DNA of 64,000 bases, taken from the IMG/VR virus record IMGVR_UViG_2974625447_000001, positions 57,808-121,807 of that record. The stretch is one strand, 5' to 3'. Positions 16,204 through 54,592 of this stretch are shown here, one piece after another. The notes below the pieces were generated by a model. That model saw only the letters and a list, made by a program, of their open reading frames with translations, was not told where the DNA came from and made no database searches. This stretch comes from Streptomyces virus Yaboi (Duplodnaviria; Heunggongvirae; Uroviricota; Caudoviricetes). How positions within the stretch are numbered: the first letter of the stretch is position 1; every line of letters begins with the position of its first letter. The translations under genes and the position numbers were made by a program.

Positions 16204-16725
16204 ATGACGGTACTTCTGCGAACAATTCATGGAAGCCATCTGTATGGCCTCGCTCACGCAGACAGCGATAAGGATATCTACGAAGTAGTTACAACCACTC
16301 GCACTAAGCGTAAGCGAAACATTAAGCAGACCATTTCAAATGGTGTTGACAAGACGACGGTAGATATGTCAACATTTATGAGGATGGTTGATGATTGCGT
16401 ACCTCAAGCACTTGAAGCGCTATGGACGCCGGTAGCTGAGATCGATAAGATCCACGAATTCCGGACACAATATCGAGTGAATCGCGCCAAGATGAAGGAT
16501 GTGTACGTAAGAACTGCTCTGAATTTTGCCAAGAGTGACGGAATTAAGCAGAAGAAGCACGCAGTGCGGCTCTTGCTGAACCTTGGTCACACTTTGGAAT
16601 TTGGAAAGTTCAATCCTCGATTGGATGCAATGGATAAGATCATTATCAATGCATCTGTCGGAGATGCGGGAAAGTATGATGCTGTGTTCGACGCTCTTAT
16701 TGATGAGGTCGGCCGGTGGATATGA
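16204..16725 (+). CDS. Pol-beta-superfamily nucleotidyltransferase
   Basis: HGSHLYGLAHADSDKDIY = GS-x9-DxD NTase signature; 173 aa. Confidence 0.5.
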   Translation: MTVLLRTIHGSHLYGLAHADSDKDIYEVVTTTRTKRKRNIKQTISNGVDKTTVDMSTFMRMVDDCVPQALEALWTPVAEIDKIHEFRTQYRVNRAKMKDVYVRTALNFAKSDGIKQKKHAVRLLLNLGHTLEFGKFNPRLDAMDKIIINASVGDAGKYDAVFDALIDEVGRWI

Positions 16726-16734
16726 TCCCACCAT

Positions 16735-16811
16735 TGGGGCGTATACCCTCTGTCTGATAAACAGTTGAAAGGTTAAGTGGTCACATGTGGGTTCAACTCC
16801 CACCGTCCCAA
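16735..16811 (+). tRNA. non-canonical tRNA-like gene W1 (anticodon-like loop GAT, Ile)
   Basis: acceptor tggggcg/cgtccca (7 bp) and T-arm gtgggTTCAACTcccac are canonical. The only anticodon-like hairpin (tctgt-ctGATaa-acagt, U33/A37) sits at positions 15-31 directly after a 7-nt linker tataccc. A 21-nt region with a D-loop-like AAGTGG follows. Confidence 0.45.
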
Positions 16812-16851: not shown

Positions 16852-18660
16852 ATGGTGAATTTCAACAAGACTCATTCAAAAGAACTTGTGAAACTCCCTG
16901 ACTCAGACCTAGAGCTTAGCTCTAGGTCTTTTAGGCTTTCCAGTCAGGGTGCACTTAAGCATGTCTCCGGAGGAGCGCGTCTAAGTGTGAAGAATCTGAT
17001 TGACTGGTTGACCGTAGCAGACTATAAAATCGAGATTGCTAAGGCCAAGCACGAGGGGAACTTCGAGAAAGCCCGCAAGCTTCGAATGGAACAACAGAAG
17101 CAGGCACAACCACGCCGAAAGCATTTCTACATTTCCCTAGGGGCGATCCTAGCCGTCACAGCATGGCTAACTAGCGCCTTCGGAGCTGTCACTTTTGGCG
17201 CGGCAGCAGTGAGCCTCTTGATTCTCTTTGCCATCGTAGGTGTAACTAATAAGACTTACATCTTTGGAGAAGAGACAGCCGAAGAGGAAGAACCAATGGC
17301 ACCATTTCCAATTGCTGACGCTCGCAACAGAGAAGAGGCTATTGAATGTCTACGCAGAGCCCTTCTTGCGGAAGGCATCACACCAAGAACGATTCTTGAT
17401 CCGACAAGATATAATTGGGGATGGGAGTTCACGGTTATTCTTCGCAAGGGCAAGCCAGATGATGTAATGGCTAAGACCAAGGATATGGAAACTCTGATGA
17501 GATTGCCTTCTGATGGAATGCTTGTCGCAGCTACCAGATTCCGAGCAGAGGTCATTATCAGACTAATGCAGTCAGACCCATTTGCTGATCTAACGCCTCA
17601 GCCAAGAGCAGAGCCTTTGTCACGGTCAATCAAGAATAAGTACAAGGTTGCCCAGAGAATGGACGGAAAGCATCTTGAGCTTAGTCTGCTGAGAAATCAC
17701 GCAGTCATTATCGCCGCGCCTGGTGGTGGTAAGTCTATGTTTATGCGAACACTGGCAGATATCACTACTAGCTGTAGAGACTGTGTAACTTGGGACATTG
17801 ACCCCGGCGGAAATGGTCTTGAGGTATTTGGAGACGCTATTGCACGTAGAGGTAGAACCGAAGCTGAAATTGAAGAAATGCTAACTGAGGCTCTGGAGTA
17901 CACCAAGATTCGTGCAAAGAAGCTCACAAAGCTTCGTATGGGCGATAACTGGCAGCCAACCAGAGAACACCCTGCCCTTGTTATCTTCATTGATGAGTTT
18001 ATTCAGCTCAACAAGAAGTGCAAGGATCTGGCTATTGACATCATTCGCAATGGACGCAAGTCAGCAATTACTGTAATTCTTGCAGCACAGCAGGCAACCA
18101 AGGATCAGCTTGGAGCGGCTATCGCAGACTCTGTGTCAATTAAGGTAATGTTTGCCTCTCGTCATGCCGACGTTCCTTTGGTATTTGGAGAGGGGGCCAT
18201 CAGCCAAGGATGGAGGCCAGATAAGCTTCACCCTGCTTCTGGAGAAGATATTGAAGATGCAGGAAAGTGTTACATCATGGGTGGGGGATCAAGAGAGCCT
18301 TATCTCTACAAGGCGTTCCCACTTGATCCAGAAGAGGCAATTGAAATCGGTGACGAACGTGCCGGTGAAGGAATTGTTGAGCTAGACAAGGACACTTATC
18401 TTGATGTAACAGTCACAGATGTAACAGACAAGAGGTTGCTGGAAGATGTTCTAGACATTTTTGAGAACTTTGATGAGCATGACTGGCTACCAGCAAGTAT
18501 CTTGACCAAGGAGCTTCGAGGCTACGGACACATCTTGACAGCCCGTCAGCTACATGAGATCCTAGGTGATACCGGCAGAGAGAGCCGCATCTGGGAAGGC
18601 TCTAAGTATAAGGTTGCCGGTTACTTTAGAAAGAACATCGAGAAGCAACTGGAGCGGTAA
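16852..18660 (+). CDS. FtsK/SpoIIIE-like DNA translocase ATPase with N-terminal TM segments
   Basis: TM helices (ILAVTAWLTSAFGAVTFGAAAVSLLILFAIVGV); Walker A IIAAPGGGKSMFMRTL; Walker B VIFIDEF; ORF track starts at 16777 but that overlaps a tRNA-like gene. Confidence 0.6.
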   Translation: MVNFNKTHSKELVKLPDSDLELSSRSFRLSSQGALKHVSGGARLSVKNLIDWLTVADYKIEIAKAKHEGNFEKARKLRMEQQKQAQPRRKHFYISLGAILAVTAWLTSAFGAVTFGAAAVSLLILFAIVGVTNKTYIFGEETAEEEEPMAPFPIADARNREEAIECLRRALLAEGITPRTILDPTRYNWGWEFTVILRKGKPDDVMAKTKDMETLMRLPSDGMLVAATRFRAEVIIRLMQSDPFADLTPQPRAEPLSRSIKNKYKVAQRMDGKHLELSLLRNHAVIIAAPGGGKSMFMRTLADITTSCRDCVTWDIDPGGNGLEVFGDAIARRGRTEAEIEEMLTEALEYTKIRAKKLTKLRMGDNWQPTREHPALVIFIDEFIQLNKKCKDLAIDIIRNGRKSAITVILAAQQATKDQLGAAIADSVSIKVMFASRHADVPLVFGEGAISQGWRPDKLHPASGEDIEDAGKCYIMGGGSREPYLYKAFPLDPEEAIEIGDERAGEGIVELDKDTYLDVTVTDVTDKRLLEDVLDIFENFDEHDWLPASILTKELRGYGHILTARQLHEILGDTGRESRIWEGSKYKVAGYFRKNIEKQLER

Positions 18661-18923
18661 TGGAAATGTTGATGGTTGGCCCGGTGTTCCTGTGGGTTCT
18701 GGTCACTCTCTATCTTGTAAAGAAGAAGGGTAGGCAGTGGCCAGACCTCTTTTGGGGAATTCTCGGCGGCCTGATTGTTGCCAAGCTGTTTCCTCAGACT
18801 CCGGACACGATTTTCAATCTGTTTGCAGGAGCATGGGATGGCCTGGTAGGAATCTTCCAAAGCGTCAGTGGTTGACAGACTGCCTGACAAACTGTAAGCT
18901 GTAGCTAAAGGTCTTCGGACCGA

Positions 18924-18997
18924 GCGCCTGTAGCATATGTGGTTGATGCGCCAGTCTTATAAACTGGAGAAAGCGGGTTCAAATCCTGCCAGGCGTA
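18924..18997 (+). tRNA. tRNA-Ile (anticodon TAT)
   Basis: acceptor gcgcctg/caggcgt (G1-U72); anticodon arm ccagt-ctTATaa-actgg; T-arm gcgggTTCAAATcctgc. Confidence 0.6.
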
Positions 18998-19200
18998 CGT
19001 ATTATTGTCAACGAAGGGACCACAGTGGCTCTTTCAAATCTATTTCCTGTAGGTCAGCGAGTTAAGGTTGTTCGTGGATCATACAAGAATAAGCAAGGAA
19101 AGGTCGAGCGGGTCGGTGGCAGTAAGGTCGTCATCCTTGATGACAATACTGTTCTGTACGGCGCAAGCGACGAAATGGTTAAGCGGGCCTGAGTGCCCTA

Positions 19201-19273
19201 GCTCCTATAGCCCAATGGCAGAGGCAGGTGCCTTAAAAGCACTAAAGTGTCGGTTCAAATCCGACTAGGAGCA
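19201..19273 (+). tRNA. class-I tRNA with anticodon TAA (Leu-type anticodon, short variable arm)
   Basis: acceptor gctccta/taggagc; D-arm gcccAATGGCAGaggc; anticodon arm ggtgc-ctTAAaa-gcact; T-arm gtcggTTCAAATccgac; A73. Confidence 0.55.
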
Positions 19274-22157: not shown

Positions 22158-22232
22158 CTTTTGGGTCGAATGACTATCGGTTATCTGTCTATGAAACAGA
22201 CTGAAACACGGTTCGAATCCGTGGCTTGCTTT
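22158..22232 (+). ncRNA. tRNA-like element X2 abutting tRNA-Asp, candidate Y-RNA-like/tRNA-mimic near rsr
   Basis: starts cTTTTGGGTCGAATG, contains hairpin gtct-atgaaac-agac and T-arm-like acacgGTTCGAATccgtg but no pairable acceptor; homologous to X1. Confidence 0.35.
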
Positions 22233-22748: not shown

Positions 22749-24374
22749 ATGTCCAACGCACTAACTAACGCCGCAAAGGCAGCAAACAAGACTTCTCAGT
22801 CAATGAAGGCTAAGGCTGGACAGGTTAAGAACAACGCTGGTGGATTCGTCTTCCAGGTTTCTGACCAGGCCCGCCTTGAGCGTTTCCTTATTCTGGGAAC
22901 TGACGGAGGAACGTACTACGTCAATGAGGTTAACCACACTCAGAAGAACGTAGATTTCCTTAACGAGTTTATTGCTCGTGACGAAGCTGCTGTCCTGAAC
23001 ACGATTGTTGATGTCTCTGTCAATGGCCGTGCATACAAGCAGTCTCCAGCCCTTTTCGCCCTTGCTTCTGTTATTGTCAATGGCAAGGACAAGCAGGCGG
23101 TAAAGGCTGTATTCAACAAGGTCGTAAGGACTGCTACTCATCTCTACGAGGTGGTTAACTACCTTAACGAGCTTGGTGGATGGGGTCGCGCAAAGCGCGA
23201 GATCGTGGCTGGCTGGTTCGATAGGGACGCTGATAAGCTTGCTTATCAGGCAGTCAAGTATCGTTCCCGTAAGTTCGGTGGCAACACCTGGACGCTACGA
23301 GACGTGATGCGAAAGGCTCATCCACAGAACGTTGATGCGAATGTAGCTGCCTTTATCACAAAGGGGGATGTTGTAACAGACTCTCCAGTTGCGATTAAGG
23401 GTTTCGCCCGAATGCAGAAGGCAACTTCTGTTGAGGAAGTCCACAGCGTTCTTCGTGAATACGAGATGCTTTCATGGGAGACAATTCCAACACAGTTCCT
23501 CACGGATGCCAGTGTTTGGAAGCGACTCTTTGCTAATGGTCAGCTTCGCGGCCAGGCTGCTGTTCGAAACATCACTCGCCTTGCGCGTATTGGTGCCTTC
23601 AAGGATATGCGTTTCGCTGCGAACTTTGCTAGCCAGCTAACGAATGAGGAAATGATTCGTCAGTCTCGACTGCACCCAATCAACTTCCTTAACGCTGCCG
23701 TTGTTTATGCGGAAGGCCAGGTGGATCGAAAGACCTACTATGGTGGTCGTGTGAAGAACTGGGAGACTGAGGGCGTTATTGTCGATGCTATCGATGAGGC
23801 GTTTCACAAGTCATTCAAGACCATTGAGCCAGCGGGAAAGAGGACGATGCTCGCCATCGACTGTTCCGGTTCAATGAGTGCACTTGCGTCAGGTCTCGAT
23901 CTAACTTGTGCACAGGTCGCTGCTGCAATGGCAATGACTGTTGCACGTACTGAGCCAGCTCACATTATTCGTGGCTTCTCCAGCGCGGGTTACAACTGGC
24001 GTGACAGTGGTCTAGCTGAGCTAAAGATTACCGGCCGTTCCTCTCTTGCCCAGGCAATGAGTGAGATGCGAAAGGTGAACTGGGGCGGAACTGACTGCTC
24101 ACTGCCAATGACGTGGGCTCTTGAGAACAGGGTTGAAGTTGACACCTTTGTTGTTATCACTGATAACGAGACATGGGCTGGAAAGATTCACCCATTCCAG
24201 GCTCTCAAGCAGTATCGCAAGAGCATGGGAATCGATGCGAAGCTTGCTGTTCTAGGAGTTTCTGCAACTGATTTCTCTATCGCTGATCCAAGTGATCGCG
24301 GCATGATGGATTTCGTTGGCTTTGATAGCAACGCTCCACGTGTTCTGGCTGACTTCTCTGCGGGTCGTCTCTGA
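22749..24374 (+). CDS. rsr: Ro60/TROVE-domain RNA-binding protein (Rsr homologue) with C-terminal vWA
   Basis: 541 aa; N-terminal RLERFLILGTDGGTYYV matches Ro60 RLHRFLCFGSEGGTYYI; PALFALASV matches Ro60 PMLFALAIC; C-terminal vWA MIDAS LAIDCSGSMS; RBS ggaaaggaaag; terminator 24376-24405. Confidence 0.85.
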   Translation: MSNALTNAAKAANKTSQSMKAKAGQVKNNAGGFVFQVSDQARLERFLILGTDGGTYYVNEVNHTQKNVDFLNEFIARDEAAVLNTIVDVSVNGRAYKQSPALFALASVIVNGKDKQAVKAVFNKVVRTATHLYEVVNYLNELGGWGRAKREIVAGWFDRDADKLAYQAVKYRSRKFGGNTWTLRDVMRKAHPQNVDANVAAFITKGDVVTDSPVAIKGFARMQKATSVEEVHSVLREYEMLSWETIPTQFLTDASVWKRLFANGQLRGQAAVRNITRLARIGAFKDMRFAANFASQLTNEEMIRQSRLHPINFLNAAVVYAEGQVDRKTYYGGRVKNWETEGVIVDAIDEAFHKSFKTIEPAGKRTMLAIDCSGSMSALASGLDLTCAQVAAAMAMTVARTEPAHIIRGFSSAGYNWRDSGLAELKITGRSSLAQAMSEMRKVNWGGTDCSLPMTWALENRVEVDTFVVITDNETWAGKIHPFQALKQYRKSMGIDAKLAVLGVSATDFSIADPSDRGMMDFVGFDSNAPRVLADFSAGRL

Positions 24375-25643: not shown

Positions 25644-27354
25644 CATGACTGGTCGTCCGCTTAATGTGGGCGATAAAGTCATTTTCGCGCGGCCACAAGG
25701 TGGCAATTCAAAGGGGGGATTCCTGGATTCAGGAGAGATCACCAAGATGAATCCAGAGACTAACTACATCTCAATCCGTGTTGACAGCGAGCCTGAGACT
25801 CGGTACAGTAAAAGAGTGGTTGGAACTCCTTACCACATGAAGAAGTTCTATAAGCTGGAGGGCTAATGTCTAATAGCTGGTTTCATGCCGTAAGCAGCTC
25901 ACGTAAGTGGGGCGGCAAGCCAGAAGACTATCTCCACATTCATGAGTGGATTGATGGATCAAAGGCTCATTTTGGTGACGCTCGTCACCGGGCGCTTCGC
26001 CATCACACCGAAGGATGCTGGGAAGCCGAACGTGTCTTCGGGCCTACCATTACAGTAGAAAAGAAGAACGGTATGGGCACTCATCAGGTTCCTGTTAGGG
26101 AAATTGCAGAGCAGCACGTTTTTGAGGATCTGGGACGTATCCCTAGCCTCGCTGACTGGCTGGAGTGCATGACCTTGAAGACCTGGATGGGTGGAAAGAT
26201 CAAGAAGTTCCTAGGACGCGAGGACGTTCTAAACAACGTTGTTAAGGATGCTAAGTGAGCGAAGTAGAAGAAGTAACCGGACGCCCAATCACGGGTGATC
26301 GTCAGTACGCCTCAAGCCATATGGTTGAGCAGCGTGATCCACGAGAGTTCATTGAGGCCATGGATGCTGTACTTGCGCATCCCAATGTGGTTGCTGTAAA
26401 GTGGACTCAGTACACACCAGGCTTCAATGATGGTGAGCCATGTACTTTTGATGGTCATTCACCAGAGGTAAAGCTTGTTGGCTTCACCGATGTCGATGAG
26501 GGCGTTGAGCTGGAGTCAGGAGATTATCTCGATGACTCAGAAGATGGCACATGGCTATCAGAGTATGATCTCTATCAGTATCGAAATGAGGCCGGTGAAG
26601 TAGATTACCGTAATGGTAAGCGAGTCTACGAGGTATGTGGACTAGACACTACTGAAATCTCTAAGCTACTTGGAGACTTCGAATCCGCTGTAACAAGTGG
26701 TGCACACGATGTATGGATGAACACTAACTTTGGTGATCCTGCGGAAGTCGTTGCCACACCAGAGGGTTTTGAGGTAGAGTATTACGAGTGCGGCTACTGA
26801 GGAGTTAAATGTCAATTGAGAAGGTGGATGCAGATCGCATCCTAGATGTTCTAGCGAGTCAGGTTGACGGAGACTGGAATGATGGTCTAGAGTGTTATGT
26901 GAGCGCATCTCACGATGGCGAGACCTTGAAGGTAACCATCACAGACGATGATGACAAGAAGAAGGTTTTCTACCTCACGCTCGAATCTGACTGATCTTTA
27001 GAATCTCATCTGTAGTACAATGGACACCGAAGGAGGTGTTATCATTGGCTTACATTGAGATCAACAGTTTCCATTTTGACACGGAGACTGGTAACATTAT
27101 CGTACAGTTCAGTAGACCTGTTAATGTATCTTATGAACATGAGGACATTGCTCAGGCTTATGAGAATCTTGAGGGCGAGCTATACCTTGACGCAAGCACA
27201 TCAGTGATTGGTAACTGGTGGCCAGCTTCTCTTGATGGTACGATTCAGCAGGGCCAGTCAGGAAGACAGGTTGGGCAGACTAGGAACGTAGTCCCTGATG
27301 TTCCTCTCCAGCCAGTTCCCACGTCAGAAGATGTTCCTCAGCCAGAGGAGTGAC

Positions 27355-28013: not shown

Positions 28014-28091
28014 GGGTCTGACAGGTGTGACGTTACTGAAAGCCGACAATGGACCGGTAACGGATAGTGGGTTCGACTCCCACCAGATCCA
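28014..28091 (+). tRNA. tRNA-like gene, anticodon undetermined (atypical middle region)
   Basis: acceptor gggtctg/cagatcc and T-arm gtgggTTCGACTcccac are canonical. The interior has a 6-bp stem cgttac/gtaacg around a 20-nt loop that contains AATGG, with no 5-7-5 anticodon arm. Confidence 0.35.
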
Positions 28092-28334: not shown

Positions 28335-28448
28335 AGGAGTGTAGTTTAATTGGCAAAACCGCGAAATGCACTGCCGAAAGTGATGTGGCGTAGCCCGCAG
28401 TGAGTAGGTAACAGAGTAGCAGTTGCGGGTTCGAGTCCCGTCGCTCCG
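28335..28448 (+). ncRNA. tRNA-like RNA with about 40-nt internal insertion (pseudo-tRNA or insertion-containing tRNA)
   Basis: 5' acceptor-like aggagtg plus canonical D-arm gtttAATTGGCAaaac; 3' T-arm gcgggTTCGAGTcccgt plus cgctccg; 64 nt between them with no anticodon arm. Confidence 0.3.
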
Positions 28449-28585
28449 CTAGCCTGAGACGACGATCCGATGTAGGTCCCCTAGGGCTTGCGCAGGCCCG
28501 AAGGGCATTCGGGAAAGGTTCCTAGCTAGGTCCGTCTATCAATAGGGTGAGAGTTTTGACAGTTTCCTCATAATAAACTGTCCCC

Positions 28586-28657: not shown

Positions 28658-28730
28658 CAATGAGTAGGCAGGGAACGGTTCGATTCCGTGTTTCGCGCGT
28701 TGGTGTATGGTGCATAGGCTTGCTCAGTAA

Positions 28731-28801: not shown

Positions 28802-28878
28802 CTTTGCTGGAAGATGATAGACTCTGGGGAAGGCCAGATAAATAACGAAAGCGCGGTGCGAGTCCGCCAACAGCGTAT

Positions 28879-28956
28879 GCCCTAGTATCGCCACTGGCTT
28901 CTAACCAGTCGTTAACAGCGTAATGGAGTATGCAGGTTCGAGTCCTGTCTAGGGTA
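28879..28956 (+). tRNA. non-canonical tRNA-like gene W2 (anticodon-like loop TCT, Arg)
   Basis: acceptor gccctag/ctagggt; 7-nt linker tatcgcc; hairpin actgg-ctTCTaa-ccagt at positions 15-31; 22-nt region with AATGG; T-arm gcaggTTCGAGTcctgt; same layout as W1 and W3. Confidence 0.45.
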
Positions 28957-33196: not shown

Positions 33197-33273
33197 GTCT
33201 CCATATCTCCTCTGCCTCCTAAGCAGTTGAAAGAGTAACCGGATACATGTGGGTTCGACTCCCACTGGGGACA
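33197..33273 (+). tRNA. non-canonical tRNA-like gene W3 (anticodon-like loop CCT, Arg)
   Basis: acceptor gtctcca/tggggac; linker tatctcc; hairpin tctgc-ctCCTaa-gcagt at 15-31; 21-nt region tgaaagagtaaccggatacat (near-identical to W1); T-arm gtgggTTCGACTcccac. Confidence 0.45.
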
Positions 33274-36758: not shown

Positions 36759-36830
36759 GGTTGCGAGCCAGGGATAAGCTAGGCGGGTCTGTAAAACCCT
36801 ACCTTGGGAGTTCGAATCTCCCCGCAACCA
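36759..36830 (+). tRNA. class-I tRNA with anticodon GTA (Tyr-type anticodon, short variable arm)
   Basis: acceptor ggttgcg/cgcaacc perfect; anticodon loop ctGTAaa on 4-bp stem gggt/accc; T-arm gggagTTCGAATctccc. Confidence 0.45.
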
Positions 36831-36832
36831 CT

Positions 36833-41046: not shown

Positions 41047-41116
41047 TGCTACGTAGCTTAATATGGCAAAGCAACTCTTGGCCAGGGTGTCACGTGGTTC
41101 GAACCCCGTCGTAGCA
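41047..41116 (+). tRNA. degenerate tRNA-like (pseudo-tRNA?)
   Basis: perfect acceptor tgctacg/cgtagca and D-arm gcttAATATGGCAaagc, but T-arm (cgtggTTCGAAcccc) and anticodon arm (loop ttGGCca) are imperfect. Confidence 0.3.
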
Positions 41117-41667
41117 GCAATATCAATTAGACTTCATAATCACCTTCCTGTTATACTAATGGTGCCCTAATCCATCAGAGGCAGGAGGATTGAATATGGA
41201 CTTTGTGGAACACCTAGGTTACCAGTACCTCTCTGATCTTCTGACGGAAATCCGACAGGGCCAGCAGAGATTGGAGGATAGAATGGCAGACCTAACAACT
41301 GAGGTTGCAAACCTCCGCGAAGCGGTATCTGGCGTAAGTTCAAGAGTTGATGCCCTTGTTGGCCCTCTTGCGGACGCCGTTAGAGAGGCACAGGAAGCTC
41401 TACAGGCAGAGCGTGACGCCGCTGAGGCATTGCGTGTATCTGAGGACGCCGAAGATGTTGAGCAGAATGCTGCATTGCAGGACGCTCAGGATCGTCTTGA
41501 TGCTGCACTAGCTCAGGCTTCCGATGCAGCCGATCAGATCAGTGTTGAGACAGCTCGTCTAAATGAGGTCGCAAAGCCAGCAGAGGAGCCTACTCCGGAG
41601 CAGCCAAGCGAGCCAACACCTGATGAGCCATCCGGCCCTGGTACCGAGCTTTGATAGAAAAATAGTT

Positions 41668-41734: not shown

Positions 41735-41763
41735 CGCTCTATAGCGTCACTTCATTGTGCACG
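41735..41763 (+). promoter_or_regulatory. sigma-70-like promoter TTGACG-N17-TAGAAT
   Basis: tTTGACGccttctagtagcgctgcTAGAATgacag; transcript leader carries a T-arm-like hairpin before gene at 41853. Confidence 0.45.
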
Positions 41764-43424
41764 GTGTTTTGACGCCTTCTAGTAGCGCTGCTAGAATGAC
41801 AGAGATGGAAGGTTGCGGGTTCGATTCCCGCCCCCGGATTTTAAGGAGTATCATGAAAGATGATCTGATTGAGATCTCAGATGAAGAGTTTCGAGCGGCG
41901 TACCAAAGAAGGTTGAAGGCTCTAGGAATTACTGAGCAAGATCTTCTACGTCAAGCTGCGGCAGGAAACTTTGACACACATCAAATTAGAATGCTATGGT
42001 TTACAGTAGGCGGCTGGAAGAACGGCAAGCCTGTAGTCATGGCGTGAGGAGTGAAATGAACTACAACCCTGGTTAAGTAGCTTGACAAAGCTACACAACA
42101 ACAACTAGGATGTGATGTATGGCTACTGGCAAGGAGCGAGGCTTCAAGGACTGGAAGGGCTCCAAGGAGTTCCGCCGAAGCGCTCGTAATTACACTGAGT
42201 CCGAGACCGTTGGTAAGGGCAAGAAGAAGAACACTCGCAAGTGGTGCAAGGGAAAGGTCGGACGTAAGCACGTCCTTGGGCTTTTCAACAAGTACACCTG
42301 GCGACACGGGTACAAGTGCATCAATTGTGGGCGCGAGTTTCTTTGGCATTTTAGCGACCCGAACCGTGACAAGTTCGACTATGTTCCCGTAAGCTGGGAT
42401 GACCCTAGGGCGAACTGATGCAACTTAAGATGTACGCAATTGCCTGTGACCAAGCAGAAGCTATAAAGAACTGTTACACAGGCAAATATACAAACCAACC
42501 ATTCTGGCCTGATCATAAAACTCTGCTCCCATATCTGGAGCGAGCTAAGGCCGACAATCCTGATCTCCCATTGAAGATCTTTGTCATTAAGGTGAGTGGA
42601 TAAAATTGGCCGGTAACAAGAACAGCCGTAAGAAGTGGCTTTGCCTTGATTGTGGTGTAGACACTGGCAGGGTTGGCGAACACTTCTTTCTGATCAACGA
42701 GGTCTGGTCCTTGACAGGACTTGGGCACAAGGGTATGCTCTGTATTGAGCACGTTGAGAAGCGCATCGGTAGGCGTCTTGTTCCGGCCGATTTTGCTTCT
42801 GTGTGGATCAATGGACCGCGCGGCGGAATGAAGAGTCAGCGCCTTGCCAATCGATTGGGATACAAATGAATTGGAATTGGGTAGACGCGGCTCCAGAGGC
42901 CGTAGCTTATTACAAAAAGAAGAAGGCTGTCAAAGTCAACACAGTTGGCGACATAGAGGTCTGGCGAGATGTTTACGGCTATTCACGATTGATTCGTGAA
43001 AAGGACGGTAAGATTCAGGTCAGCGGTCGAGACTTCTTCACGATCAAGGACGCCACCGATGCAGCCTCTGCGTGTTAAGGTTGGCGATACTGTCTGTGAT
43101 TGCAGATACCTCCACCAAAAGGTGTTGAAGATCTGGCCAGACGGTGATACAGTAACTCTAGAAGATGGGGCAAGCTGCTCCATACGGCACTGCCTTGATG
43201 AAGCAAATCACGAATGGCAGCACCCAGAAGAAAACTAATCAGGAGGCCCGATGAGCTGGTTCAAATCAAAGAAGGGAAAGACTCAGCAAATCACTGAGCC
43301 TTCAAGACTGAGCCTAGATATTCTGGACATTCCAGGAATCGATGATGAAATCGACCAATGTGTTTGTGCGGAAGATTTTCTTGATCTCCTCGAAAAGTAT
43401 CGGAAAAATTAACCAGGAGGACCG

Positions 43425-53552: not shown

Positions 53553-54592
53553 GCGCTGAGAATGTAGCGGCACTCATGGCCGTAGAGAACGTCAGGAAGC
53601 TGTTCAGGGAATTTCGTTTTGAGCCGGGCACCGGATTCATGTGTGACCTTGTTCAATACCCTGCAACGCAACACGACGTTCCCAACTTCGCTCTAAGAGC
53701 CTACAGCAACACCTTTGACAACCTTTCTCAGAAGAACAGGCTGCTAATCACCGAACAGATTGGCAGTCTGATTCAGAAAATCCGTTCTCTTGGTGTTAAC
53801 TGTATTTTGGAGGTATATGATGCACCGGGAAAGCCAAGTGGTTCTGGTAGTTAGTGAAGGTGTCTACGGGATTATCACCGAAGTTCATAGCTATATGTGC
53901 AAGGTGCAGTATTCCGTGGGTGGAATAGAGTACAATGAATATTTCGAAAACGATGACCTTGAGGTCATTGGAGAGATTGGATATGAGGAGGAGTGAGCGA
54001 ACTGGTTTGTCAGATCTGTGACAAGCAGAGGAATTCACTGGTGAATTACAAGTCAAAGCTTAATCCAGATATGGATTTCATGGCTTGCTCTCCGTGCGCC
54101 AATGGCGAGCTAGAGCCTAGATGGCTTGTAATTCTGATGGCCCGATCAGGAGCCAACGTGAGCAGATGGCTTGAGAATAAGCTTTACGTTGGTGAGGACA
54201 TCACTGAGAAGCATTTGAATTAAGCCATCAGGCCGGGTATACTAGCCAAGACTAGGGAACTACGGGGTTCGAATCCCTACCGGCCGCAATTGATCCCCTT
54301 GATGGGAGGACGATGTATTTTGAAGATGAGCCTTCAACAGCGCAGTGTATAAAAGATTTGACCAAAGAGATCTGGGTGACCATCAAGATGGTTTTGAGAT
54401 CAGAAGCAACTCCGGAGGAAATTTCCGGTGCTGCTGAAAGGGCCAAGTTTCTGCGTTTGTATATCGACAGATATCACTCAAAGGACATGGATGCTCTAAC
54501 CGAGACAGAAATTTGGCTCGCTCAAGAAGTAGCCGATGCCGTTGAAGACTTGATTGATTGACTTTTAACTCATCAATGACTACAATTCGTAT

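Follow-up and report, generated by a model that had tools for sequence, protein, structure and literature searches.

The stretch of DNA analysed here, called the window in the following, comprises 64,000 nucleotides (nt) from Streptomyces phage Yaboi (NC_048730.1; cluster BE, genus Karimacvirus), with each window position equal to the record position minus 57,807. Analysis of one element in its transfer RNA (tRNA) region, W2 (28879-28956, plus strand), indicated that it is most probably a functional phage tRNA-Arg(UCU) with a rearranged core. As read from sequence and covariation, the segment equivalent to positions 10-21 of a canonical tRNA (the 5' strand of the D stem and the D-loop) is moved into the variable loop, with all conserved core nucleotides kept. 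Two sister elements in the window, W1 and W3, share the general layout, and relatives are found in many other phages. Judged in this way, W2 passes every defining test of a tRNA except for the local D hairpin, its charging and decoding being predictions from the same evidence.

Recognition of W2 by standard tools

W2 is 78 nt long and reads gccctag-tatcgcc-actgg/cttctaa/ccagt-cgttaacagcgtaatggagtat-gcagg/ttcgagt/cctgt-ctagggt-a. The sequence and arm layout that the initial annotation had given for it matched exactly on re-reading, and its placement inside a dense tRNA cluster was borne out, the element starting 76 nt after tRNA-Gly(gcc). The tRNA model of Rfam (RF00005) matched W2 at the same coordinates with 32.8 bits, a marginal pass at a gathering score of 29, and W1 (30.3 bits) and W3 (29.9 bits) also passed marginally. 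In the Rfam alignment, the D arm of W2 was dropped (4 nt vs. 15 model positions) and 19 nt were inserted before the T arm; UCU was placed at positions 34-36, in an anticodon loop CUUCUAA. ARAGORN reported 41 tRNAs and one transfer-messenger RNA in the window, W2 not among them, and called no family member in the window or in the corresponding loci of Salmonella phage Felix O1 and coliphages phi92 and 121Q.

In GenBank, W2 of Yaboi (NC_048730) is labelled tRNA-Val(aac), and W1 and W3 are unannotated there; in Genie2, a phage nearly identical to Yaboi, W2 is left unannotated as well. The GenBank relatives matched by W2 are mostly unannotated, or else labelled tRNA-OTHER, tRNA or, in the 121Q homologue (KM507819), tRNA-Leu(taa). 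In both the Val(aac) label of Yaboi and the Leu(taa) label of 121Q, ARAGORN-based annotation takes the linker stretch CGTTAACA as the anticodon loop, and ARAGORN is probably the source of the two labels.

The 5' motif TATNNCCNCTGNCTNNNAANCAGT was found three times in the window (at 16742 in W1, 28886 in W2 and 33204 in W3) against 0.06 expected. A covariance model of the family gave 87 bits for W3, 87 for W1 and 74 for W2, versus 30 for the best canonical tRNA in the window. Because of the threefold occurrence of the motif and the gap between 74-87 bits and the 30 bits of a canonical tRNA, W2 is considered more than a chance resemblance; the low score of the best canonical tRNA also means that the window holds exactly three members of the family.

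Covariation and secondary structure

The structure was tested on a MAFFT alignment of 91 distinct sequences parsed from all the loci found. The family counts given below rest on these sequences, as a lower bound, and on the further loci listed. In the alignment, the bases following U8-A9 read T-x-y-C and those following the anticodon arm and linker read G-y'-x'-T, x and y being complementary to x' and y'. This long-range stem was complementary in 61/61 sequences of one subtype (type A) and in 30/30 of the other (type B), the sets having been picked without regard to pairing, and seven dinucleotide combinations are used in type A. Alignment columns 11-42 and 12-41 showed four pair types each, with none unpaired. 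Standard pairs occupied 91% of cells, compared to 62% in shuffles, and at most 48% of cells paired when the 3' partners were slid by 1-3 columns. Changes on both sides were seen in 19 of the 22 pairs, corresponding to a covariation score of 0.78 vs. 0.20 in shuffles. RNAalifold, on its own, returned the acceptor stem, a long-range stem of 3 base pairs (bp), the anticodon stem and the T stem. With four helices covarying across 91 relatives, the earlier proposal that W2 belongs to a non-canonical tRNA-like family with a UCU anticodon loop is supported.

The tertiary pairs of the tRNA core were also reflected in the alignment. The R15/Y48 pair was A-U in 73 members, G-C in 9, G-U in 2 and another combination in 7. 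The GG of the D-loop occurred together with C56 in 88 sequences and GA with U56 in 3 (from two lineages), with zero mixed cases. A D-loop motif (A, R, Y, Y, G, G, N, .., A) follows the 3' strand of the long-range stem, and a pyrimidine then stands directly before the T stem. T8 and the equivalents of A14, G10 and C25 were invariant across aligned members; the G53-C61 equivalent was GC in 91/91, and the T loop of W2 is of the type TTCRANY. The consensus of the family has the core nucleotides U8, G10, A14, R15, G18 G19, A20, A21, C25, Y48 and G45, the last being the second base of the linker and near-invariant in both types; W2 has C at 26.

Two other foldings were considered. A local hairpin within the 22-nt stretch that precedes the T arm (GCGT AATGGAGT ATGC in W2) was rejected, since the two variable bases of GNNT (columns 41-42) covary with upstream columns 11-12, in the 5' connector, and not with the near-constant ATG before the T stem. 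A plain extended anticodon hairpin combined with an arbitrary extra stem was dropped for a mapping of the two strands to positions 22-25 and 10-13, because of the invariant G10 and C25 equivalents, the D-loop motif downstream, and the canonical alleles at the same slot.

A transposed half of the D arm

The mapping of positions was fixed by comparison with canonical alleles occupying the same slot in related phages. The canonical allele of StarPlatinum reads TA GCGT AGTGGATA ACGC G ACTGT..ACAGT TATAG GCAGG, and W2 reads TA TCGC C ACTGG..CCAGT CGTTAACA GCGT AATGGAG TAT GCAGG. By this alignment, the predicted order of W2 is acceptor 5' strand, U8 A9, 22-25, 26, anticodon arm, 44-45 and linker, 10-13, 14-21, 48, T arm, acceptor 3' strand. 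A local D hairpin between positions 9 and 26 is absent in W2, where only 5 nt lead from A9 to the anticodon stem. On this mapping, both the 7-nt connector and the 22-nt stretch on either side of the anticodon arm are structured: 28889-28891 and 28918-28920 form pairs around the anticodon arm, and what is left of the 22 nt is the relocated D-loop.

From the covariation of secondary structure and tertiary pairs, the identity pattern, the allelic replacement and the exclusivity (the last three are given in the next section), we infer the three-dimensional fold, processing, charging and decoding. Formed over a long range, the D stem would prolong the anticodon stem, and the normal stack of D stem on anticodon stem would be reproduced as one long hairpin, since the strand 22-31 is continuous and the opposite strand (39-43 followed by 10-13) is continuous too, the bulged linker aside. 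Even in its new place, the D-loop would be able to form the pairs U8-A14 and R15-Y48 and the contacts of G18G19 with the T-loop, on which the L shape depends. A canonical tRNA has A9 in contact with the 12-23 pair and position 45 in contact with the 10-25 pair; A21 is coplanar with the U8-A14 pair, and the 15-48 pair is stacked beside U8-A14. By this textbook geometry, each of the new joins 9-22, 21-48 and 45-linker-10 would link residues that lie side by side in the L-shaped core anyway.

The W2 RNA would be transcribed together with the tRNA cluster, trimmed by host end-processing enzymes (RNase P at the 5' end) and supplied with CCA by a host enzyme. It would then be charged by the host arginyl-tRNA synthetase (ArgRS) through A20, C35, U36 and A73, and would read AGA and possibly AGG codons. 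In Yaboi, W2 would replace the canonical tRNA-Arg(UCU) that related phages have at the same locus.

Identity elements and replacement of canonical tRNAs

The base after GG (position 20) was A in 61/61 members with an Arg anticodon and U in 27/27 members with an Ile or CAU anticodon, and the discriminator was A in 24/24 Ile members. For Escherichia coli ArgRS, A20 and C35 form the main identity set, together with U/G36 and A/G73, and A73 belongs to the set of the isoleucyl-tRNA synthetase (IleRS). W2 has the Arg set, with A after GG, anticodon UCU and discriminator A. The anticodon loops CUUCUAA, CUACGAA and CUGAUAA have U33 and a purine at 37, both of which are canonical features.

Comparison of phages of the BE cluster showed that rearranged and canonical genes occur as alternatives at the same slots. 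In Yaboi, the genes for UCU (W2, type B) and CCU (W3, type A) are rearranged, those for UCG and ACG are canonical, and GAU is represented by a canonical gene as well as a rearranged one (W1). StarPlatinum (28 kb examined) has canonical genes for UCU, CCU, UCG and ACG, and GAU in the rearranged form only. In Persimmon, the genes for UCU and CCU are canonical, those for UCG and ACG are rearranged (type A), and GAU is present in both forms. For every Arg anticodon compared, each of the three phages thus has a single tRNA, either canonical or rearranged, and there are zero further UCU or CCU tRNAs in the complete genome of Yaboi. The W2 slot is occupied by a canonical tRNA-Arg(tct), and the W3 slot by a canonical tRNA-Arg(cct), in both StarPlatinum and Persimmon. 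Wherever slots were compared, the two kinds of allele had conserved flanks, and in StarPlatinum the acceptor stem and flanks at the CCU slot are identical to those of W3. Identical or near-identical homologues of W1 are present in StarPlatinum and Persimmon, and the Persimmon copy has a compensatory change in the anticodon stem. Outside the cluster, Felix O1 has 22 annotated tRNAs of which the only Arg tRNA is ACG, and its rearranged gene (25951-26029) supplies UCU.

Exclusivity was tested by running ARAGORN on 139 loci with family members and scoring canonical tRNAs of the same anticodon. Canonical and rearranged tRNAs of the same anticodon were nearly mutually exclusive across these loci. 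For ACG, a canonical gene was present at 0/32 loci with the rearranged form and at 21/82 without it; the corresponding values were 1/42 and 33/72 for UCU, 3/35 and 44/79 for GAU, and 0/12 and 32/102 for UAU (Fisher p between 0.017 and 7e-7 once duplicate loci had been crudely removed). Where an Arg or Ile anticodon did occur in both forms among these loci, the canonical and the rearranged gene were direct neighbours in tandem, and such pairs may be intermediates of replacement. Tandem pairs were located in L045 (1839-2005), L046 (10069-10230), L091 (4514-4677), L146 (1522-1692) and L177 (2629-2795).

Codon use in Yaboi (30 genes) showed that AGA and AGG made up 12.5% and 10.3% of Arg codons, respectively, at a G+C content of 49% in the window. 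Streptomyces hosts are rich in G+C and rarely use AGA.

The phi92 type B copy (L122, 2495-2576) and a canonical T5-type tRNA-Arg(UCU) (L181, 257-331) have almost the same acceptor stem and T arm and different interiors, and W2 resembles the canonical allele of its own cluster in its D-stem bases (GCGT with CGC, as in StarPlatinum) and in the length of its D-loop. These likenesses in sequence suggest recombination between canonical and rearranged genes, within the gene.

Types and distribution of the family

The initial annotation had assigned W2 the same architecture as W1. This holds for the general layout and was refined here, with W2 belonging to subtype B and W1 and W3 to subtype A. Type A (58 distinct sequences) has the linker NGAAA and the anticodons ACG (24), GAU (16), UAU (8), UCG (3), UCU (3), CAU (3) and CCU (1). 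Type B is 78-79 nt long, with the linker CGTTAAYN and UCU in 32/32 distinct sequences. One UCU sequence with a short linker, TTTA, falls outside both types. The first anticodon-stem pair (27-43) is normal in type B and a conserved U-U mismatch in type A, leaving a stem of 4 bp; the mismatch corresponds to alignment columns 15 and 31, and to window positions 16749/16765 in W1 and 33211/33227 in W3. Anticodon stems of 4 bp have reportedly been linked to relaxed decoding in a 2026 paper. CCA is encoded in 45/91 members and in 20/32 of type B, not including W2 of Yaboi.

Scanning IMG/VR with the 5' motif yielded at least 117 loci, most of them with the same architecture; the first pattern (16 specified bases) also took in canonical tRNA-Arg genes and chance matches, which were removed by parsing. 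A second scan, with a W2-type motif in which the anticodon was left free, yielded 47 loci, with UCU in every sequence parsed. BLAST with W2 matched 275 GenBank phage records at approximately 81-85% identity over 65 nt, including Salmonella phage Felix O1, coliphages phi92 and 121Q, and phages of Klebsiella, Proteus and Rhodococcus; the coliphage and Salmonella phage copies are 85% identical to W2 over 65 nt. Several phages of the BASEL collection also carry family members. The covariance model of the family additionally found divergent members with linkers of 3-11 nt; one such member has G-C where the long-range stem otherwise always has its C-G pair.

Among 185,579 genomes of bacterial and archaeal species (one each), the type A motif had 10 matches, all on metagenome-assembled contigs; one of these contigs is 362,763 bp long, as is one IMG/VR viral contig. 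A search of 5,426 complete E. coli genomes gave zero matches to type B. Going by these scans, the family is essentially confined to viruses and absent from the E. coli chromosomes, prophages and plasmids searched.

Alternative explanations and origin of the fold

Several observations weigh against W2 being a working tRNA-Arg(UCU) that has taken the place of a canonical one. The minimum-energy fold of W2 as a single sequence contains neither the anticodon hairpin nor the long-range stem (z = -1.0), and the single-sequence folds of W1, W2, W3 and the Felix O1 copy had z-scores of -1.1 to 0, which is uninformative. The equivalent of the 13/22 pair is a U-U mismatch in 91/91 members, and the D-like stem comprises only three Watson-Crick pairs. 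The L-shape model builds on sequence patterns, covariation and textbook tRNA geometry. W1 (GAU) coexists with a canonical tRNA-Ile(gat) in Yaboi, and replacement is thus not universal. The loci of the exclusivity test are partly related to each other, and at most 15 kb of each contig was covered.

Decay of a canonical tRNA-Arg, which the initial annotation had named as the finding in related phages that would count against it, is nevertheless a highly improbable account of W2. A canonical tRNA-Arg(tct) does stand at the same position in related BE phages, and the marginal Rfam score (32.8 vs. 29) and the rejection by ARAGORN would fit a pseudogene. W2 is, however, a conserved and covarying alternative allele: its architecture is shared by 58 distinct sequences of type A and 32 of type B, which come from enterobacterial and actinobacterial phages and show compensatory changes in every helix. 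Its identity to coliphage copies is 85%, and decay would not keep the long-range stem, the covariation of tertiary pairs and the anticodon. The database annotations imply instead an ordinary tRNA of other identity, Val(aac) in NC_048730 or Leu(taa) in KM507819, with GTTAAC or GTTAAT as the anticodon loop and the UCU hairpin as the D arm. This is practically untenable, as the supposed anticodon stem has only about 2 pairs, and the supposed anticodon varies with the linker (AAC, AAT, AAA) while the UCU loop is invariant in 32/32 type B sequences. For the UCU hairpin, a stem of 5 bp and a loop of 7 nt are backed by the covariation, and Rfam places UCU at 34-36.

It also seems improbable that W2 is a tRNA-like RNA acting outside translation, either as a decoy for host tRNA-targeting nucleases or modification enzymes or as a substrate or cofactor of the phage repair set (Ro60, RlaP, RNA ligase and polynucleotide kinase), its tRNA shape being kept only for recognition by those proteins. 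Such a role would fit with the presence in Yaboi of a Ro60/TROVE protein and of an RlaP nucleotidyltransferase encoded directly upstream of W1, and with several further tRNA-like elements of the window, among them a candidate Y RNA at 28335-28449, in which acceptor stem and T arm surround an unusual interior. A decoy, however, need not exclude the canonical tRNA of the same anticodon, nor need it occupy the canonical slot while the remaining isoacceptor set stays complete. The synthetase identity pattern, moreover, matches the anticodon without exception (Arg members have A20, Ile members U20 and A73), and the acceptor/T domain of W2 is a standard 7/5 helix, as EF-Tu binding requires.

With W2 taken as a functional tRNA-Arg(UCU), the origin of its fold can be considered separately. 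The rearranged allele could be a cleavage-resistant version of the tRNA gene that travels through phage tRNA clusters with free-standing HNH homing endonucleases and is spread by gene conversion, an origin that we regard as rather unlikely. It would leave the RNA functional, the topology being a by-product of a destroyed nuclease target, and is therefore compatible with W2 as a functional tRNA. In Persimmon, HNH genes lie on both sides of the rearranged UCG tRNA and upstream of the rearranged ACG tRNA. The type B tRNA gene of Felix O1 overlaps at its 3' end with the start of an HNH gene, and an HNH gene is also recorded under the match for several Felix-like phages. Furthermore, the confinement of the replacement to the tRNA gene, with conserved flanks and an identical acceptor stem at the CCU slot, is the pattern expected of short-tract gene conversion, and the acceptor stem and T arm shared by the phi92 type B copy and the canonical T5-type tRNA-Arg(UCU) point in the same direction. 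SegB of phage T4 is a homing endonuclease that acts in a tRNA gene region. On the other hand, W1, W2 and W3 have no adjacent HNH gene in Yaboi, HNH genes are common throughout these tRNA clusters so that their adjacency may be chance, and we know of no cleavage site. HNH genes next to rearranged tRNAs were located at 18366-19260 and 22750-23181 in L186 and at 2547-2939 in L121.

We tentatively put forward, as a possibility of limited likelihood, that the rearranged cloverleaf is an adaptive, virus-specific tRNA scaffold, in which the backbone takes another route through the D domain with all core contacts retained, and which would be accepted by ArgRS or IleRS, EF-Tu and the ribosome while escaping proteins that read the canonical connectivity of the D arm. 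The proteins escaped could be host tRNA-targeting defence nucleases or toxins, or those of the phage's own depletion of host tRNAs. Such a scaffold would explain why Arg and Ile isoacceptors have been displaced repeatedly in phages of Proteobacteria and Actinobacteria, and why the fold was found in none of the isolate genomes searched. A neutral accident hitch-hiking on mobile tRNA clusters is a possible third origin.

Parts of W2 and neighbouring elements

The coordinates of the parts of W2, the two sister elements and the RNA-repair genes are listed in Table 1.

Table 1. Parts of W2, sister elements and RNA-repair genes of Yaboi (window positions, except where the record is named)
Feature	Position	Strand	Remarks
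Acceptor stem, 5' strand GCCCTAG	28879..28885	+	Pairs with 28949-28955; 7/7 pairs covary in 91 sequences, 98% of cells paired
U8 A9 equivalents (TA)	28886..28887	+	Invariant in 91/91 aligned members
D-stem 3'-strand equivalent, positions 22-25 (TCGC)	28888..28891	+	28889-28891 pair with 28918-28920
Position-26 equivalent (C)	28892	+	Single nt leading from long-range stem to anticodon stem in all parsed members
Anticodon arm ACTGG/CTTCTAA/CCAGT, anticodon TCT at 28900-28902	28893..28909	+	Covarying stem; C32 U33, A37 A38
Linker CGTTAACA (N44 G45 equivalents and 6 extra nt), type B signature	28910..28917	+	CGTTAA kept in 32/32 type B
D-stem 5'-strand equivalent, positions 10-13 (GCGT)	28918..28921	+	Invariant G10 pairs with invariant C25 equivalent (91 aligned members)
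Relocated D-loop AATGGAGTA (A14 A15 U16 G18 G19 A20 .. A21) and U48	28922..28931	+	A14 invariant; R15/Y48 covaries
T arm GCAGG/TTCGAGT/CCTGT	28932..28948	+	5-bp covarying stem, 99% of cells paired; canonical T-loop
Acceptor stem, 3' strand CTAGGGT and discriminator A; CCA not encoded	28949..28956	+	Sequence and covariation
W1, type A, anticodon GAU (Ile)	16735..16811	+	Family model 86.9 bits
W3, type A, anticodon CCU (Arg)	33197..33273	+	Family model 87.2 bits
RlaP-family nucleotidyltransferase	16204-16725		Directly upstream of W1
Ro60/TROVE protein	22749-24374		RNA-repair set within tRNA region
RNA ligase and polynucleotide kinase	Record 101232-102308 and 103056-103946		RNA-repair set

Felix O1 likewise has an 'RNA-binding protein' gene just before its tRNA array, and a polynucleotide kinase. 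Further unusual elements were noticed around the three family members. An element of 115 nt at 28335-28449 (plus strand), unannotated in GenBank, scored 31.2 bits with the Rfam tRNA model and has a normal acceptor stem, D arm and T arm, with 58 nt replacing the anticodon arm. Its layout resembles that of bacterial Y RNAs of the YrlA type, and the phage encodes Ro60/TROVE. Weak matches to the family model (12-18 bits) at 28014-28091, 41760-41838, 54231-54286 and 22179-22231 consist of an acceptor-like stem and a good T arm with an unrecognisable interior; these may represent relics or additional tRNA-like elements.

Some of the spacers between tRNA genes contain hairpins made up of just a T arm. 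The one described earlier before W2, GCGGTGCGAGTCCGC, exists, at 28853-28867 rather than at 28848-28862. Another lies at 28675-28689, and more were seen in L186 (13109-13248); sequences include GCGG TGCGAGT CCGC and ACGG TTCGATT CCGT. The 76-nt spacer before W2 is near-identical in StarPlatinum, and the matching spacer of Persimmon has three T-arm-only hairpins. The hairpins may serve as signals for processing or be what is left of former tRNAs. Two genes annotated in the Yaboi record, the second one for tRNA-Tyr(gta) at 36759-36831 and the third one for tRNA-Pro(tgg) at 41047-41118, were recovered neither by ARAGORN nor at the Rfam gathering score.

Implications

The family occurs in at least 250 GenBank phage records, among them those of the model phages Felix O1, phi92 and 121Q, and appears to replace ordinary Arg and Ile tRNAs. 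If its members are charged and decode, the bacterial translation apparatus accepts another chain topology of tRNA, and standard tRNA finders undercount and mislabel the tRNA sets of phages. For Yaboi, the annotated tRNA-Val(aac) would then probably be non-existent, and the readers of AGA and AGG, which seem to be missing, would probably be present. Since the phages can be grown on E. coli K-12, the family would also be a tractable system for finding out what selects the fold, for instance a homing endonuclease, a toxin or a defence system. Were the fold indeed an adaptive scaffold, it would represent a natural bacterial tRNA with a secondary structure other than the cloverleaf, and a shape-orthogonal scaffold for genetic-code engineering.

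Comparison with known tRNAs

Full-text literature searches, including searches with sequence motifs, found no description of the fold, with most subscription journals outside their coverage. A 2024 paper describes all known bacterial tRNAs as canonical cloverleaves. Reviews of non-canonical tRNAs report only changes in helix length or the loss of arms in mitochondria, and mention neither phages nor a rearrangement of this kind (PMC7609411, PMC5389517). In the genome paper on rV5, a gene named "ArgAGA" by tRNAscan appears without further remark, and could be of type B.

The D-armless tRNAs of metazoan mitochondria, such as tRNA-Ser(AGY/UCU) (PMC7609411, PMC4013460), resemble W2 in having no hairpin between the acceptor and anticodon stems, and in both cases the D arm is deleted in covariance-model alignments; the UCU anticodon is shared by coincidence. 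In the mitochondrial tRNAs, a short unpaired connector stands in for the D arm, the D-loop and its contacts with the T-loop are lost, the T-loop is reduced or variable and the molecule is flexible, whereas the rearranged family keeps a D stem, the GG, a canonical T-loop and the G19-C56 covariation. The rearranged tRNAs, moreover, have their full length (77-79 nt) and belong to phages of bacteria.

A non-canonical order of segments is shared with another group. Circularly permuted tRNA genes were reportedly described by Soma and co-workers in 2007 in Cyanidioschyzon merolae. There, the whole gene is permuted, with the 3' half preceding the 5' half and the acceptor termini lying inside the precursor, and processing restores a normal tRNA, whereas in W2 the acceptor ends are the outer ones and only the internal segment 10-21 is moved. 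Because circularisation cannot restore the canonical order, the mature W2 RNA would have to keep the rearranged connectivity.

Natural tRNAs that deviate from the standard cloverleaf and are still L-shaped include tRNA-Sec, allo-tRNAs and 8/4 tRNA-His/Ser, some of them in phage clusters (PMC5389517). These tRNAs differ in helix lengths (8/4 or 9/3 acceptor/T domains, long D stem, long variable arm) and keep the standard order of arms, whereas W2 has the standard 7/5 lengths and a changed order of strands. Class II tRNAs (Leu, Ser and bacterial Tyr) have, like W2, approximately 20 nt between the anticodon and T stems. Their variable arm is a hairpin of its own and accompanies a normal D arm; the stretch in W2, in contrast, has no conserved local hairpin, pairs with the bases next to U8-A9 and bears the D-loop motif.

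The closest counterpart is the canonical tRNA-Arg(UCU) of class I (RF00005), as found in StarPlatinum or in the T5-type genes, with which W2 shares the 7-bp acceptor stem, the T arm, the anticodon arm and the slot. The canonical tRNA has its D hairpin between positions 9 and 26 and the middle of a variable loop where the rearranged family has a linker of 5-8 nt; W2 has instead a long-range D stem that encloses the anticodon arm. On this comparative evidence, the W2 family would constitute a new structural variant of tRNA, with a transposed half of the D arm, among the Arg and Ile tRNAs of viruses.

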